35,979 nt of DNA from an uncultured bacterium. GTDB taxonomy: Bacteria > Verrucomicrobiota > Verrucomicrobiia > Verrucomicrobiales > DEV007. Shown piece by piece: positions 20,658 to 26,012 of this stretch. Location: assembly GCA_963977015.1 (NCBI GenBank), contig CAXBMO010000038.1, positions 1 to 35,979 on the forward strand, read 5' to 3'. The translations under genes and the position numbers were made by a program. Below the pieces are notes generated by a model. That model was not told the DNA's origin and ran no database searches. It saw only the letters and a list, made by a program, of their open reading frames with translations. Numbering within the stretch: position 1 is the first letter of the stretch; each line of letters starts with the position of its first letter.

Positions 20658-22223
20658 TCAATCAAGAATCGTGCTTTCCCGCCGGTGGCGTCCGATCGTC
20701 AACCAGGTGACCAATTGAATCAGGGCAAAAGCGAGAAATGGTCCCCAGGTGATCCAGGTCAGGGCGGGAAGACCGAGAAACTCAGTGGAAGTCCAGGTGT
20801 AATCGTTGTGAAACTGCAGATAGTAGGCGGAGACAGTCAACATCAGCAGAATCAGACTGGGCGAGGGAAAGAGGCAGAGAAACGGGACGACCCACGCGAA
20901 ATACCACGGAAACGAGGTGGGATTGAGAAGGAAAAGGAGAGCGACAACCCAGAAACACTTCTCCAGAACATCTTCGTGGGTGAAGGACGGAAGGAATGCC
21001 AGGACGAGAATGCTCAAAATGAGGATGACGGCGACGACGATTTTTGCGCGGGCATAGGTCTCACCGCCCATGATCCCATCGATGATCAGGAAAAAGAAAC
21101 TGTTGTTCTGCCAGTCTTGCGAATACGTCAGCAGACCACTGAAGACCCTCGCGAAACCGGCATCCTGCCAAACGATGAACGGCCAATAGCTGCCGATGAC
21201 CACCAAGGCGCAAAGCAGATAAACGAGCCAACTCTGCCATCGTTTTGGGGAATGCAGCACCGGAACGACCAGCGCCCCGAAAAACTTGGTGAGCGTTCCG
21301 ATTCCAGCGGCGATGCCTCCCAGAACGGCGTTTCGCCCGAGTGAAAGGCAGATCGCGAGGAGCAGGAAGAAAATCGGGATCGCGTCATAGTGCGCGGAGT
21401 TGGAGAACTCGACCAGAATGAGCGGCGACCAGGCGTAGAGAATCACGGAAGCCGTCGATCGTTTGAGCAGAATCAAAAGCGCCACGATTAAGCCGATACA
21501 GCCAAGATCGAAAATCAGGAGCATCATCTTCAACCCGAGGAGCGAGTCTTCAAAACACAGGCTCGAAAGCGCGAAAAACCCCTGGGCGGCAGGCGGATAG
21601 ATGGTCGGCACCTGCCAATGCCCGATCCGTTCGTGCAATTGATGGTTGTCGCCGCGAAGTTCCGAAAGGCGCTTGAGATGCACCTCGTCCTGCTCCGTCC
21701 AAGTTCGGCCGTTGAGCACAACGGCGTTGATTTCCGTGGGTTGGGTCAGTCCCTGTTCATGGATGAACAGGGCTGCGGGCTCATAGAGATAGGGATTGAT
21801 CCCATTTTTGAGGGACTTTCCATCCCACAGATAGCGATAGAAGTCATTCTCGTGAATCGGGACGCTGCCGATCATCAGGATCCGAAACCCAATGGCAAAG
21901 AGAACGATCAGCCAGGTAACTTTGGGCGAGGCCCGTTGGTTTTGGAGGAGGAGAAAAACGGGCACCAAGACCAACCACAGCAAAACCTGGAGGATCAGGA
22001 AGGCGACTGTGGGCATGTCGTCGTTGTCCACCTCGTAGTCGAAACCATTTTTCAACTCAGCAACAAAGCCTCGCGTCGATTCCGGCGTGGCGTTGACGAG
22101 ACTGGCGACAAAGTCGGGGTGGAGGCCGCGCGTGATGTCCGCCAGCAAAAACCAAAGCGCCGCACTGAGGGCTCCCCCAAGTGCCACCACGAGGTAAAGC
22201 GTGCCGACGTTTCGTTGTTGCAT
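20658..22223 (-). CDS. GT-C superfamily membrane glycosyltransferase (GT87/DUF2029-like)
   Basis: ENDFYRYLWDG...GINPYLYEP, PTIYPPAAQ, LYAWSPL...EFSNSAHYD, FPWYFAW. ATG 22223 preferred because the TTG at 22241 lies in the terminator U-tract. Confidence 0.85.
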   Translation of the reverse strand: MQQRNVGTLYLVVALGGALSAALWFLLADITRGLHPDFVASLVNATPESTRGFVAELKNGFDYEVDNDDMPTVAFLILQVLLWLVLVPVFLLLQNQRASPKVTWLIVLFAIGFRILMIGSVPIHENDFYRYLWDGKSLKNGINPYLYEPAALFIHEQGLTQPTEINAVVLNGRTWTEQDEVHLKRLSELRGDNHQLHERIGHWQVPTIYPPAAQGFFALSSLCFEDSLLGLKMMLLIFDLGCIGLIVALLILLKRSTASVILYAWSPLILVEFSNSAHYDAIPIFFLLLAICLSLGRNAVLGGIAAGIGTLTKFFGALVVPVLHSPKRWQSWLVYLLCALVVIGSYWPFIVWQDAGFARVFSGLLTYSQDWQNNSFFFLIIDGIMGGETYARAKIVVAVILILSILVLAFLPSFTHEDVLEKCFWVVALLFLLNPTSFPWYFAWVVPFLCLFPSPSLILLMLTVSAYYLQFHNDYTWTSTEFLGLPALTWITWGPFLAFALIQLVTWLTIGRHRRESTILD

Positions 22224-22239
22224 GTGCGGGTTCTGAACC

Positions 22240-22274
22240 AAAAAAGCATCTGTCCGCGCTAACGAACAGATGCT
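22240..22274 (-). terminator. Rho-independent terminator of the EF-hand gene
   Basis: Minus strand AGCATCTGTTCG-TTAGCG-CGGACAGATGCT followed by TTTTT; 12-bp stem with one G-U pair, about 30 bp past the stop at 22303. Confidence 0.8.
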
Positions 22275-22302
22275 CTGGAAAAAGCGGTAGGTTGGGAACC
22301 TC

Positions 22303-22791
22303 CTATTTCTTGGGCTGGGTTGTCGAGCCCTTTTTCAGGCCTGCCGAGCCTTTTTGCGCTGCCGTGGCGGCTGCTGCGGCGCTTGCTGCAGCTTTTTTCT
22401 GCGAAACGGCGGCCAGATATTCGCCTTTGACGACTTGGCCGTCCGGAGTGCCGCTTTCAATGGCATCCAACGTATCAAACACCTTCTTCACCGCAGAACC
22501 ATACTCCTTGAAGGCCACATTCGCGTCGCCGTCCACATCCATTTTTGCAAACTCGGGCAGGGCGAACAAGTCCCATTCAGCGGCTGGCTCGCTCTTTTCG
22601 AACTCCGCCGAAGTCAACGTCTTACTGCGATCCCGATCCAACGCCTGAAACTCACTGACTTTCTTTTGGGCGAATTCGATATAGCGAACGGCCTGATCTC
22701 CATCGGCATCATATTTGGTGAAGTGGGATTCATCGGCAAGCGCAACAGTCGCGAACAGCAGCGAGAGGGAAAGGGCGGTCAGTTTTTTCAT
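22303..22791 (-). CDS. Secreted EF-hand calcium-binding protein
   Basis: Signal peptide; DADGDQAVRYIEF, DRDRSKTLTSAEF, DVDGDANVAFKEY loops; Ala/Lys-rich tail. Confidence 0.85.
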   Translation of the reverse strand: MKKLTALSLSLLFATVALADESHFTKYDADGDQAVRYIEFAQKKVSEFQALDRDRSKTLTSAEFEKSEPAAEWDLFALPEFAKMDVDGDANVAFKEYGSAVKKVFDTLDAIESGTPDGQVVKGEYLAAVSQKKAAASAAAAATAAQKGSAGLKKGSTTQPKK

Positions 22792-22867
22792 GGGGATTGT
22801 GATATTTTCTCTTTCTTTACAGTGTTTGGCTCAGAAGTCGAGTCACCATTCCTACGGCCTCTCATTC

Positions 22868-22892
22868 GAAAAATTCTTGCCGAAAAGTCGGA
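22868..22892 (+). repeat. 25-bp direct repeat, left copy (GAAAAATTCTTGCCGAAAAGTCGGA)
   Basis: Identical to 24410-24434. Confidence 0.95.
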
Positions 22893-23012
22893 ATCTTACG
22901 GTGGGAAAGTGACCGCAGAGGAGAAAATGCCGAGAGCCAGCTACGTCATGGAACAAAAAGGATTGCTTTCATAGTGCCATTTCGTTACCAAAGATCATTG
23001 GAAGGAGTTGAT

Positions 23013-23642
23013 ATGGCACGTAAGAAAGTCTTTATAAGCTACTCGTATATTGACCGGGCTTTTGCGGAGAGTATCCCCGCACTCTTGGAATCCGGAGCCA
23101 ACAAACCCGAAGTCTTTTGTGCGGGGCACAGCCTTGAAGCGGGAGATCAGTTTAAGTCTAAAATCCTGAGAAACCTTAGAGAGGCCGACATTGTGGTGGT
23201 GGTGTCGTCTCACAATGCCGCGAAGAGCGAATGGGTTCTCGCAGAGATTGGAGCTGCGCTTGCTTTCGACAAAGTGATCCTACCCATCTTGTGCGGATGC
23301 ACGATTGAAGAAACGCCCAAGATGTTGCGAGAGATTCACCATGAGGAAAGTGTTGGATCGCTGATCCGTAAGATTTGTAGTCGTTTTGGGGACTGTCCCG
23401 AACCGCACGCCATTGGAAATGCTGTCGTTGCCGGTTCTCGGGTAATGCTCCCCCAGGATACGCCGCCCAGTGCCTACCGCGGAGATGGGAACCGTCCAGT
23501 AGAGTGGACTCCTGAAATGGATCCTTATTTTGGAGCGCAAAGTCCTGTGGCAGAAGTCAGCGAGGAGCTCCGAGCCGCCAAGCTGGAGTGCGATCAGGGA
23601 CAATTCTGGTATGCCATTGAATGGCTCACGATCTTAAACTGA
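23013..23642 (+). CDS. TIR-domain protein with a small C-terminal SH3-like domain
   Basis: KVFISYS...D, SLEAGDQFKSKILRNLREADIVVVVSSHNAAKSEWVLAEIGAALAFDKVILPI. GGAG RBS precedes ATG 23013. Confidence 0.9.
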   Translation: MARKKVFISYSYIDRAFAESIPALLESGANKPEVFCAGHSLEAGDQFKSKILRNLREADIVVVVSSHNAAKSEWVLAEIGAALAFDKVILPILCGCTIEETPKMLREIHHEESVGSLIRKICSRFGDCPEPHAIGNAVVAGSRVMLPQDTPPSAYRGDGNRPVEWTPEMDPYFGAQSPVAEVSEELRAAKLECDQGQFWYAIEWLTILN

Positions 23643-23643
23643 A

Positions 23644-24294
23644 ATGGATATGGACATCATCCCTCTCAAAAAAGAAATGGTCCAAGGGGATAAAGAAACC
23701 CTGGTCGAAGACAATACCCAACAAGGTGATTTGCGCATTGGCTTGGGGTGGGATCCGGCGGCAATCAACTCCAAATTTGAGTTCGACCTCGATCTAAGTT
23801 GTATCCTTTTGCGAACTGATGGTCGTATTCGAGAAGCGGAGGATTTTGTCTTCTTTCACAATCTTGTTTCTCAAGGAGGAGCGGTGCACCACAGTGGTGA
23901 TGATCCTGATGGAACTGTTTCACCAAACGAACACGATGAGGTGATCACCATCACACCGCAAGAAATCGAGCTGGACATCACACGGATCGTTGTATTGGTC
24001 ACCATCTACGATGGCATCGCTCGCAACCAGCACTTTGGCATGGTCAATCGCTCGTTCGTTGATGTTCGGTTCGGCAACAAATTCCTCCAAAACCGGTTCA
24101 ATCTGCAAGATCCCGAGCACTCGGGAAACACGGTAATTAACTGTGGAGAAATCTATCGGGTCAATGAGACCTGGCAGTTCAAAAACCTGAGTCTGTCCTC
24201 TCGCGAGGAAATTCCTCAGGTGTTGACGCGGTATGGTGCGAAAGGGGCCGTGAAGCCACCGACAAAAGCTTGGGTGGAGAACCACCAAATGTAG
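23644..24294 (+). CDS. TerD family protein (orphan, single domain)
   Basis: LRIGLGWD, FDLDLSCILL, EDFVFFHNL...GAVHHSGDD, HDEVITI, VTIYDGIARNQHFGMV, GEIYRVNETWQF. Starts 1 nt after the TIR stop. Confidence 0.92.
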   Translation: MDMDIIPLKKEMVQGDKETLVEDNTQQGDLRIGLGWDPAAINSKFEFDLDLSCILLRTDGRIREAEDFVFFHNLVSQGGAVHHSGDDPDGTVSPNEHDEVITITPQEIELDITRIVVLVTIYDGIARNQHFGMVNRSFVDVRFGNKFLQNRFNLQDPEHSGNTVINCGEIYRVNETWQFKNLSLSSREEIPQVLTRYGAKGAVKPPTKAWVENHQM

Positions 24295-24409
24295 GAGCTG
24301 TTCCGATTTGTTGAATCGTGAGGAGCGATTGGGTCGGCAGGCATTGCTCAGAAAGCCGATTGGAGGAGAGACTTCAAATGCTCCAAGGCGTTTCATTTCT
24401 GAACCGTCT

Positions 24410-24434
24410 GAAAAATTCTTGCCGAAAAGTCGGA
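24410..24434 (+). repeat. 25-bp direct repeat, right copy
   Basis: Identical to 22868-22892. Confidence 0.95.
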
Positions 24435-24472
24435 CTTCCCAACTTCGCATTGTGTGTCAAGTTCCCCGCCTC

Positions 24473-25225
24473 ATGGCAAACCCCGTTTTGAGCGTCCAGA
24501 ATCTGGTCAAGGAATTCGGCAATTTTCGTGCGGTCGACGGACTGAACCTCGAGCTCGCGAAGGGCGAGGTTCTGGGCTTGCTCGGGGCCAATGGCGCGGG
24601 CAAAACCACGGCGATGAACATGATGCTGGGCCTGACCACGCCAACTTCAGGGACCATCGAGATTTTCGGGAAATCGCTGCAGGAACACCGGATCGACATC
24701 CTCCGGCGTTCCAATTTTTCGAGTGCCTACACCAATCTGCCCGGAAATCTCCTCGTGGAGCAAAATCTCATCGTAACGGGGCACCTCTACGGACTGGACC
24801 GCATTCGCGAGCGCGTGGATGAGATGCTGGAACTCTTTGAGGTGGCCCATTTGCGGAAGCGACCCACGGGGCATCTCTCGGCCGGAGAGGGGACGCGGGT
24901 GAACCTTTGCAAAGCCTACCTGAACCGCCCGGAATTGCTCTTCCTCGATGAACCAACCGCGAGTCTGGATCCCGATGTCGCGGACAAGGTCCGCAAGATC
25001 ATTTGTCGCAAGCAGGCCGAGTCCGAAACCTCAATCATCTACACCAGCCACAACATGCGCGACATCGAAGAGGTATGTGATCGCGTCATCTTCGTTCACC
25101 ACGGCAAGGTGATCCGAGAAGGAACGACGGCGGAGATCAAGGCCGGTTTTGAAGAAGATTCGCTCGAAAACGTGTTTATCCGAATCGCAAGGAGCGGAGA
25201 TCTGAAGGAGAAGCCCTATGTTTAG
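24473..25225 (+). CDS. ABC-2 type transporter ATP-binding protein
   Basis: Walker A GANGAGKTT, signature LSAGE, Walker B LLFLDEPTASLDP (ELLFLDEP), TSHNM. ATG 24473. Confidence 0.95.
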   Translation: MANPVLSVQNLVKEFGNFRAVDGLNLELAKGEVLGLLGANGAGKTTAMNMMLGLTTPTSGTIEIFGKSLQEHRIDILRRSNFSSAYTNLPGNLLVEQNLIVTGHLYGLDRIRERVDEMLELFEVAHLRKRPTGHLSAGEGTRVNLCKAYLNRPELLFLDEPTASLDPDVADKVRKIICRKQAESETSIIYTSHNMRDIEEVCDRVIFVHHGKVIREGTTAEIKAGFEEDSLENVFIRIARSGDLKEKPYV

Positions 25226-26012
25226 TGGAATTTACGGAATCGTCCTGCGCTATCTTTATCTCTATACGCGCAATCCCCTGCGCGCCTTTGAGTTGTTCTT
25301 TTGGCCGGTCATCCACATCATGTTGTGGGGCTACGTGATGCAGTATCTTCAATCGGTCGGCGCGGGATCGTCGGCCGTTCCCATCGCCTTTCTTCTGGGT
25401 GGGGTCCTCCTCTGGGATGTCCAGTTTCGCGCCTCTCAGGGAGTTTCCATTTCCTTTTTGGAAGATGTCTGGACGCGAAACCTCTTGAACATCTTTGTCG
25501 CGCCGGTCCGGACGTCTGAAATGGTGGCGGGCATGTGCATCGTCGGACTTTTGCGCGTTGCGGTGACGATGCCGCTCCTCCTGTGCATGGCCTACTTCGC
25601 CTTCCAGTTTAATCTCTTTTCGATGAGCTACTGGCTCATTCCCTTCTATGGAAGTCTGCTCCTCTTTGGGTGGGCGCTGGGGATTCTCGGCAACTCGCTG
25701 ATCCTCCGATGGGGCCAGGCGGCCGAAGGACTGGTGTGGGCTCTGCCCTTTGTTGTGCAGCCGATCTCGGCCATTTTCTATCCGGTGTCGATTCTGCCGG
25801 CTTGGCTTCAGCCGCTTTCGCACGCCATTCCGGTCTCGCATATCTTCGAGGGGATGCGGGATGTGCTGGCGGGAAATTCAGACATCGCGCATCGTCTTGT
25901 TTGGGCTTATCTGCTCAACCTCATCTGGCTGTTGGCTGCCGGAGCAATCATGGCGTCCGTCCTCAAAACCGCGAGAGAACGAGGACTCCTCGTCAAGGTC
26001 GCCACCCAGTAG
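25218..26012 (+). CDS. ABC-2 type transporter permease
   Basis: About 6 TM; FLEDVWTRNLLNIFVAPV, SAIFYPVSILPAWLQ...P.SHIFEGMR. Overlaps the ATPase stop. Confidence 0.92.
   Translation: MFSGIYGIVLRYLYLYTRNPLRAFELFFWPVIHIMLWGYVMQYLQSVGAGSSAVPIAFLLGGVLLWDVQFRASQGVSISFLEDVWTRNLLNIFVAPVRTSEMVAGMCIVGLLRVAVTMPLLLCMAYFAFQFNLFSMSYWLIPFYGSLLLFGWALGILGNSLILRWGQAAEGLVWALPFVVQPISAIFYPVSILPAWLQPLSHAIPVSHIFEGMRDVLAGNSDIAHRLVWAYLLNLIWLLAAGAIMASVLKTARERGLLVKVATQ

Follow-up and report, generated by a model that had tools for sequence, protein, structure and literature searches.

A rare, movable two-gene unit of marine Verrucomicrobiales pairs TerD with a TIR protein predicted to bear an SH3-like domain

In bacteria as in plants and animals, TIR enzymes have a central role in immune signalling, and TerD proteins, widespread in bacteria and in large phages, have been tied for decades to phage inhibition and to colicin and tellurite resistance; to our knowledge, no partner or ligand of TerD has been established. 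The window analysed here, a 35,979-nucleotide (nt) stretch of DNA from an uncultured member of the Verrucomicrobiales (contig CAXBMO010000038.1; genome G000), carries a TIR gene directly followed by a TerD gene, which raises the question of whether the two form a unit and, if they do, what that unit is for. A preliminary description of this DNA had put them forward as a candidate defence or stress system. We find that the two genes do form a unit, inherited together, rare and movable and present in a few related marine Verrucomicrobiales, and that this unit matches no named defence system. The TIR protein is modelled with a second, SH3-like domain at its C terminus, and the family that shares this architecture (TIR-SH3) mostly stands alone; TerD is not its usual partner.

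Conservation and mobility of the pair

The stop codon of the TIR-SH3 gene and the start codon of the TerD gene are separated by a single nucleotide (TGA-A-ATG), as the preliminary description had it; the database forms of TerD (P0003 and P0004, 214 amino acids [aa]) begin at the second ATG, at 23650, giving a gap of 7 nt. The pairing, which that description had seen in this one genome, recurs in three others and in both gene orders. In G001, of the same genus, TIR-SH3 precedes TerD by 30 nt; TerD comes first in G003 (gap 9 nt) and in G478, which belongs to another genus of the same family (gap 20 nt). Of the 134 genomes of this taxonomic family, five encode any TerD. In four of these a TerD gene lies directly beside a TIR-SH3 gene; in the remaining one, G465, three TerD paralogues form a canonical cluster without TIR. 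A fifth pair is probably formed by P0002 (85% identical) and P0004 (87%), which, judging by their equal longest-contig value, would lie on one 63,765-nt contig.

Identities for TIR and TerD, respectively, were 40% and 47% between G000 and G001, 33% and 28% between G000 and G003, and 70% and 55% between G003 and G478. The two identity matrices are congruent and, at the level of sequence, point to matching divergence of both genes. In a 60-row TIR tree the TerD-linked members formed two starred clades (99*, 100*), with a single origin neither shown nor excluded. The linked TerDs also formed two starred clades in a 37-row TerD tree, the window's clade including an unlinked G001 paralogue that lies between purE-like and purK-like genes. 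The flanking genes differ at all four loci: EF-hand and ABC transporter genes in G000; RecJ, an epimerase, a PMT-type glycosyltransferase and DUF1501 in G001; HAD in G003; and a Ser/Thr kinase with NYN in G478.

Viral contigs contained no TIR relatives. The 49 viral TerD loci carry two to four TerD genes in 47 cases and a single one in the other two, and no TIR-family open reading frame (ORF) was found within 4 kb of TerD at any of them. A weak, word-based search of 68 long TerD proteins found no TIR Pfam domain, and a contig scan with a three-row TIR alignment, the patterns of which were N-terminal and narrow, returned the G001 contig alone.

In the window, the cassette is bounded by two exact copies of a 25-nt direct repeat, GAAAAATTCTTGCCGAAAAGTCGGA (Table 1), of which none were expected in 100 shuffles; a search of the whole genome allowing up to three mismatches found no copies beyond these two. 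Past the right repeat, the sequence can be aligned to the native stretch that precedes the ABC gene of the sister species G002, where the orthologous EF-hand and ABC ATPase genes (the latter 87% identical) lie 108 nt apart, without TIR or TerD. Public sequencing run X5 yielded a second empty site: a 196-nt contig that joins 22848-22867 to 24410-24585 and skips 1,542 nt, with 25 nt that fit either side. This joint is one low-depth contig with a short side of 20 unique nt, and it agrees with G002; both flanks are covered in X5 at ~98% identity, whereas the interval from 22937 to 24392 has no coverage. Runs X1 and X2 contain the cassette at 100% identity, and X6 contains part of TerD at ~98%.

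Base composition also sets the pair apart. Its guanine-plus-cytosine (GC) content is 0.506 against 0.560 for the genome (standard deviation 0.030), a value within the bottom 3.8% of 34,127 windows of the same size. GC at third codon positions (GC3) ranges from 0.54 to 0.56, compared with 0.62-0.74 for seven flanking genes. The A+T richness that the preliminary description had judged by eye is therefore real, and moderate. Given the empty sites (G002 and X5), the low GC and the four different flanking contexts, we conclude that the pair is a 1.54-kb mobile insertion whose presence or absence is polymorphic between near-identical strains. The cassette holds no integrase, transposase or other recombinase, and no convincing flanking repeats were found at the other three pair loci. 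For a target-site duplication, 25 nt would be long. The window also has, at ~22833-22845, a degenerate third element, AGAAGTCGAG, which is like the single native element of G002.

Table 1 Features of the cassette and its boundaries in the window
Feature	Position	Strand	Description
Left repeat copy	22868-22892	+	Exact 25-nt direct repeat; bounds cassette
Inter-repeat segment	22893-24409		GC 0.502; with one repeat copy, the 1,542 nt missing from the empty site
TIR-SH3 gene	23013-23642	+	209 aa; TIR at ~aa 6-109 with E78, linker, predicted SH3-like barrel at ~aa 141-209 (window ~23433-23639)
TerD gene	23644-24294	+	216 aa (214 aa from alternative start 23650); C-terminal tail of ~17 aa past the canonical TerD domain
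Right repeat copy	24410-24434	+	25 nt; 38 nt upstream of the ABC-transporter ATPase start (24473)

The two proteins and the TIR-SH3 family

The first protein matches Pfam TIR_2 (PF13676; E = 8.9e-16, 58.9 bits against a cut-off of 28) over residues 6-109, with weaker Pfam matches to ThsB_TIR (3.7e-6) and TIR. It keeps the Glu motif SEWVLAEIGAA, as previously pointed out, and the second Glu of this motif, E78, occupies an invariant column of the 22-row TIR-SH3 family alignment, as do F7, G44, A82, V144 and W204; S72 and W74 are conserved in at least 90%. We take E78 to be the Glu of a WxxxE-type TIR motif, that is, the catalytic position, following (S)xW. A model of the full-length protein (predicted local distance difference test [pLDDT] 87.1) was confirmed as a TIR fold by Foldseek, and the top structural matches of its TIR half were SPARTA TIR-APAZ (8qlp_E, E = 8.5e-8) and the TIR chains of SARM1 (template-modelling [TM] scores of 0.62-0.68, normalised to the target). 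The product is likely to be a cytosolic TIR enzyme, with NAD cleavage as its predicted activity.

Both the SH3-like domain and the mostly stand-alone habit of the family had escaped the preliminary description. Of 33 family members, 16 match Pfam SH3_15, the Mind bomb SH3 repeat, with their C-terminal 70 aa (best 1.4e-9). For the window protein, this region was modelled with AlphaFold2 (pLDDT 88.9), and the model aligned best with the REP region of Mind bomb 1 (4xi6_A, Z 8.7, root-mean-square deviation 2.3 Å over 68 residues; 4tse_B, Z 8.1), ordinary SH3 and KOW barrels scoring at most 6.8. With Foldseek, the best match of the domain was weak (E = 0.084). The nearest ESM Atlas cluster (0.96), of 116 members, carries the automatic name 'Mind bomb SH3 repeat / ThsB TIR-like / TIR'. 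These comparisons suggest an SH3-like barrel of the Mind bomb REP type for the C-terminal domain. A 224-aa protein, P0146, has two tandem SH3-like C-terminal domains and no TIR, so that the domain occurs independently of TIR.

A HMMER search with a three-row profile against 1.84 billion representatives recovered thousands of TIR-only matches and, in addition, at least 22 proteins (~205-230 aa) that could be aligned over their entire length. Metagenomes were scanned with nine closer rows and the pattern FIS[HY]S[SK]xDxW, and among 80 loci retained out of 277 confirmed ones 33 encoded full-length TIR-SH3 members. A TerD profile found no TerD at these 33 loci, a count that samples mainly the central clade, as the scan pattern misfits the TerD-linked clades; at least 700 nt of flank was available on one side in 27 of the 33 and on both sides in 14. 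An all-against-all comparison of the nearest same-strand neighbours of the 33 genes revealed no recurrent partner. Compared with Pfam, ten downstream neighbours comprised an FRG protein (in G134), a ComM-like Mg-chelatase ATPase, a RelE-like protein, a CSD-Excalibur protein, a methyltransferase, one protein with a weak zinc-ribbon match and four without a family. When genomes were sampled evenly, full-length TIR-SH3 was found only in G000 and G134 among 401 genomes of the phylum, and only in G000, G001 and G478 among 401 genomes of the order. That the family mostly stands alone indicates that TerD is an add-on rather than an obligatory activator of TIR-SH3; activation of a TIR NADase by TerD, as the preliminary description proposed, stays a hypothesis.

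In G134 (L027, G134:C8, 1147-2850) the gene for the FRG-domain protein (Pfam, 3.1e-29) begins 31 nt after TIR-SH3, and a small Cys-rich ORF, CPCC-like by eye, lies before the TIR-SH3 gene. In G478, an additional TIR-SH3 gene, belonging to the central clade, lies at a contig end (L120, G478:C10, 2-2067); the ORF that precedes it on the same strand (496 aa) matches no Pfam family and contains GSGKS, a P-loop-like motif.

The second protein of the cassette matches Pfam TerD (PF02342; E = 3.3e-38, 131.5 bits against a cut-off of 25.3) over profile positions 4-187 of 187, its TerD domain spanning residues 11-197 of 216. The solved TerD structures of Klebsiella (2KXT, E = 4.8e-26) and Streptomyces (3IBZ, E = 1.5e-22) were also matched, and the acidic motifs GLGWD, FDLD and GDD..G....DE are kept. 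TerD had been called a lone gene, and it is the single Pfam TerD match in the whole genome (6.9 Mb, 51 contigs). The G001 orthologue shares the conserved tail beyond the domain, which the canonical TerD rows lack; more generally, the tails of TIR-linked TerDs are kept within each clade and not in canonical TerDs. The unlinked G001 paralogue (L115, G001:C48, 1435-2115; 226 aa), which has no TIR nearby, ends in a P-S-K-x-W tail akin to the PTKxW of the TIR-linked TerDs.

What is on record for TerD covers both calcium and phage. Klebsiella TerD binds Ca2+ (Pan et al. 2011, as cited in PMC8123226), and in Streptomyces a link has been drawn between TerD-domain proteins and the homeostasis of Ca2+ (Daigle et al. 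2015, as cited in PMC8123226). The published statements nearest to a TIR-TerD pairing are those of the Aravind group. A listing of predicted sensors of nucleotide derivatives includes TerD, the same list placing TIR under NAD+-utilising enzymes (PMC7159879). A 'TerD-dependent anti-phage system' has been described (PMC3710099), and the Ter systems of jumbo phages have been covered (PMC7824862).

Relation to named systems and possible function

The preliminary description did not recognise the pairing as a named system, and our comparisons agree. Searches of the TIR protein and all 22 family rows with PADLOC and NCBIfam gave only generic, domain-level TIR matches, the best being PDC-S66 (5.7e-16), with SAVED_TIR in 22 of 22 rows; TerD matched no family in either collection. 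The Thoeris model ThcB4 of NCBIfam reached 39.4 bits against a cut-off of 220, the PADLOC ThsB models gave partial, TIR-level matches (best 9.1e-7), and no publication on a TIR-TerD dyad was found in the literature library covered.

Likenesses to known systems are all partial. Thoeris, in which a ThsB TIR protein works with a variable effector (types I-XI), also comes as a short operon with a small cytosolic TIR that has a catalytic-type Glu, its partner gene likewise varies between relatives, and the window TIR has weak matches to the ThsB_TIR profile. Here, however, the partner is TerD rather than a known Thoeris effector (SIR2-SLOG, Macro-TM or others), the TIR protein is predicted to bear a Mind-bomb-type SH3 domain, the family mostly stands alone and no defence-island context is present. 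The window TerD has a bona fide TerD fold, as in Ter clusters and Klebsiella 2KXT, but it is single, has an extra C-terminal tail and lacks terZABCEF, TelA or vWA partners; neither TerB, TerC, TerA, TerZ or TelA nor several TerDs, which mark a Ter stress or tellurite-resistance cluster, were found at the locus. Canonical Ter loci of relatives and phages, unlike the window pair, have clusters of two to four TerD paralogues and no TIR. The TIR half of the window protein resembles SPARTA TIR-APAZ and SARM1 TIR most closely in structure; it lacks, however, APAZ, Argonaute and ARM/SAM, and the sensor side would consist of an SH3-like barrel and a separate TerD. No adjacent Argonaute, CD-NTase or cyclase and no fused APAZ, SAVED, STING or cyclic-nucleotide (cNMP)-binding domain, as in SPARTA, CBASS and Pycsar, was found at the window locus. 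The C-terminal 70 aa are modelled as the same barrel as the Mind bomb 1 REP (SH3_15), although the window protein is bacterial and has one copy of the barrel, fused to TIR and below Pfam detection.

We favour, at somewhat less than an even chance, a reading in which the cassette is a mobile conflict or stress module, with TIR-SH3 as the NAD-consuming executor and TerD as a clade-specific regulatory subunit. This division of roles is preferred because TIR-SH3 usually occurs alone and TerD has no executing domain. Since it occurs alone in the wider family, TIR-SH3 probably combines sensing, by its SH3-like domain, with an effector step in which its TIR domain cleaves or cyclises NAD+. In one family of the Verrucomicrobiales, the TIR-SH3 gene would then have gained a co-transcribed TerD partner, which might serve as a stoichiometric regulatory or sensor subunit that gates TIR in response to Ca2+ or a small ligand. 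One possible route is docking of the clade-specific TerD tail on the SH3-like domain, a concrete hypothesis because Mind-bomb domains have been crystallised with target peptides (according to the title of a structure entry); by analogy with this eukaryotic domain, the SH3-like domain of the window protein may bind peptides. The whole cassette could act as a module of the abortive-infection or stress-suicide type. NADase activity, contact between TerD and TIR, the direction of regulation and any role in defence are what we infer in this reading. Rather improbable, to our judgment, is the more specific proposal that TerD is a dedicated receptor or Ca2+-dependent gate of TIR, either binding an NAD-derived nucleotide that TIR makes or coupling a Ca2+ or ligand signal through docking of its tail on the SH3-like domain. 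If true, it would provide the first direct molecular partner, and a ligand context, for the enigmatic TerD fold, as well as a prokaryotic link between TIR/cADPR (cyclic ADP-ribose)-type chemistry and calcium sensing.

Several observations weigh against the mobile-module reading. No defence genes were found around the four pair loci, hence there is no defence-island signal, and for this reason the defence label is unproven; the candidate system of the preliminary description, which had proposed defence-island enrichment as a check, thus stands as a real, mobile two-gene unit with no named match, and not as part of a defence island. The genome holds 34 TIR_2 matches, so TIR domains here may serve general signalling. 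Within the searched data, the distribution is narrow, being limited to one taxonomic family. The SH3-like domain of the window protein, taken alone, matches no Pfam family, and the lack of TerD at metagenomic TIR-SH3 loci was seen mainly in the central clade, as noted above.

A Thoeris-like arrangement, in which TIR-SH3 senses infection and makes an NAD-derived nucleotide and TerD is the receptor or the effector of that signal, would accord with the weak ThsB-type matches, with the prediction that TerD binds specialised nucleotide derivatives (PMC7159879) and with a Thoeris survey in which TIR clusters swap effectors, of which 29 types are predicted (bioRxiv 10.64898/2025.12.03.692087). We consider it unlikely: TerD, nearly all of which is the TerD domain, has no killing, enzymatic or membrane domain, the TIR-SH3 family mostly stands alone, the ThcB4 score lies far below its cut-off, and the word 'TerD' does not occur in the main text of that survey. 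The housekeeping flanks of all four loci, the abundance of TIR domains in the genome and the link of TerD-domain proteins to Ca2+ homeostasis in Streptomyces would instead fit an accessory, non-defence stress or Ca2+ signalling pair, with TerD and a TIR scaffold acting in calcium or redox adaptation and having no role against phages. That, too, seems improbable in view of the polymorphic presence of the cassette between near-identical strains, its patchy occurrence (4 of 134 genomes), its fast divergence (identities of 40-47% within the genus, as against 86% for the ABC ATPase) and the strict retention of the catalytic Glu. Finally, adjacency might carry no functional link at all, TerD and TIR having simply hitch-hiked together; the pair is known from only four or five genomes of one bacterial family, and their relatedness inflates the count. 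This we regard as highly improbable, because the pair persists down to 28-33% identity, through a flip of gene order and across four contexts, with gaps of always 1-30 nt on the same strand and with congruent trees for the two genes.

Co-folding of the pair, which the preliminary description had suggested, is not counted as evidence either way. The score was 0.32 (runs of 0.32, 0.29 and 0.36; best control 0.01), labelled 'weak support', with partner pLDDT of at least 69 and runs agreeing in at least 53% of contacts, from shallow alignments of three and four rows; no interface is proposed from it. In calibration the mark was reached by 58 of 80 solved complexes and by 2 of 110 mismatched pairs, and among scores of at most 0.60 the passing cases were 7 of the 80 solved complexes plus both of the mismatched pairs that reached the mark.

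What is new at this locus is the predicted SH3-like domain, the recurrent pairing with TerD, and an insertion bounded by 25-nt repeats with empty sites. As a minimal, portable two-gene cassette, it offers a simple system for asking what TerD senses and how TIR is gated, its reach being limited by its narrow distribution in uncultured marine Verrucomicrobiales. The analysis also defines a family of TIR proteins with a Mind-bomb-type SH3 domain; surveys that exclude stand-alone TIR genes would have dropped such members, and the Thoeris survey mentioned above removed stand-alone TIR proteins (bioRxiv 10.64898/2025.12.03.692087).

Surroundings of the cassette

The preliminary description had placed the pair among housekeeping genes, with no Ter, Thoeris-partner, CD-NTase or Argonaute gene nearby, and a scan of 18 flanking ORFs gave the same picture. 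Those matched by Pfam encode housekeeping or envelope functions: a GT87-like protein, the EF-hand protein, the ATPase and permease of an ABC-2 transporter, QueA, GT2, PSD1/DUF1501, PGI, HTTM, FolB, PDZ and a GDSL lipase. No Ter, SIR2/SLOG, CD-NTase or Argonaute genes were found among the 18, and PADLOC returned only generic ATPase matches for the neighbours, all of them to the ABC ATPase. A scan of 22200-25300 for sigma-70-like promoters found no sites with a consensus that may differ from that of the organism's own promoters.

Several of the TIR_2 matches of the genome are clustered, on contigs C25 (~76-91 kb), C36 (~15-21 kb) and C23 (~91-93 kb), and several lie in very long ORFs of up to 2010 aa, one frame holding three TIR repeats; the genome is TIR-rich and may have TIR islands. 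Adjoining the insertion site, on the minus strand (22303-22791), is the gene for the EF-hand protein, a secreted-looking member of a Ca2+-binding class. That this gene lies near one for the Ca2+-binding TerD is probably a coincidence, because in G002 the EF-hand gene adjoins the ABC transporter without the cassette.

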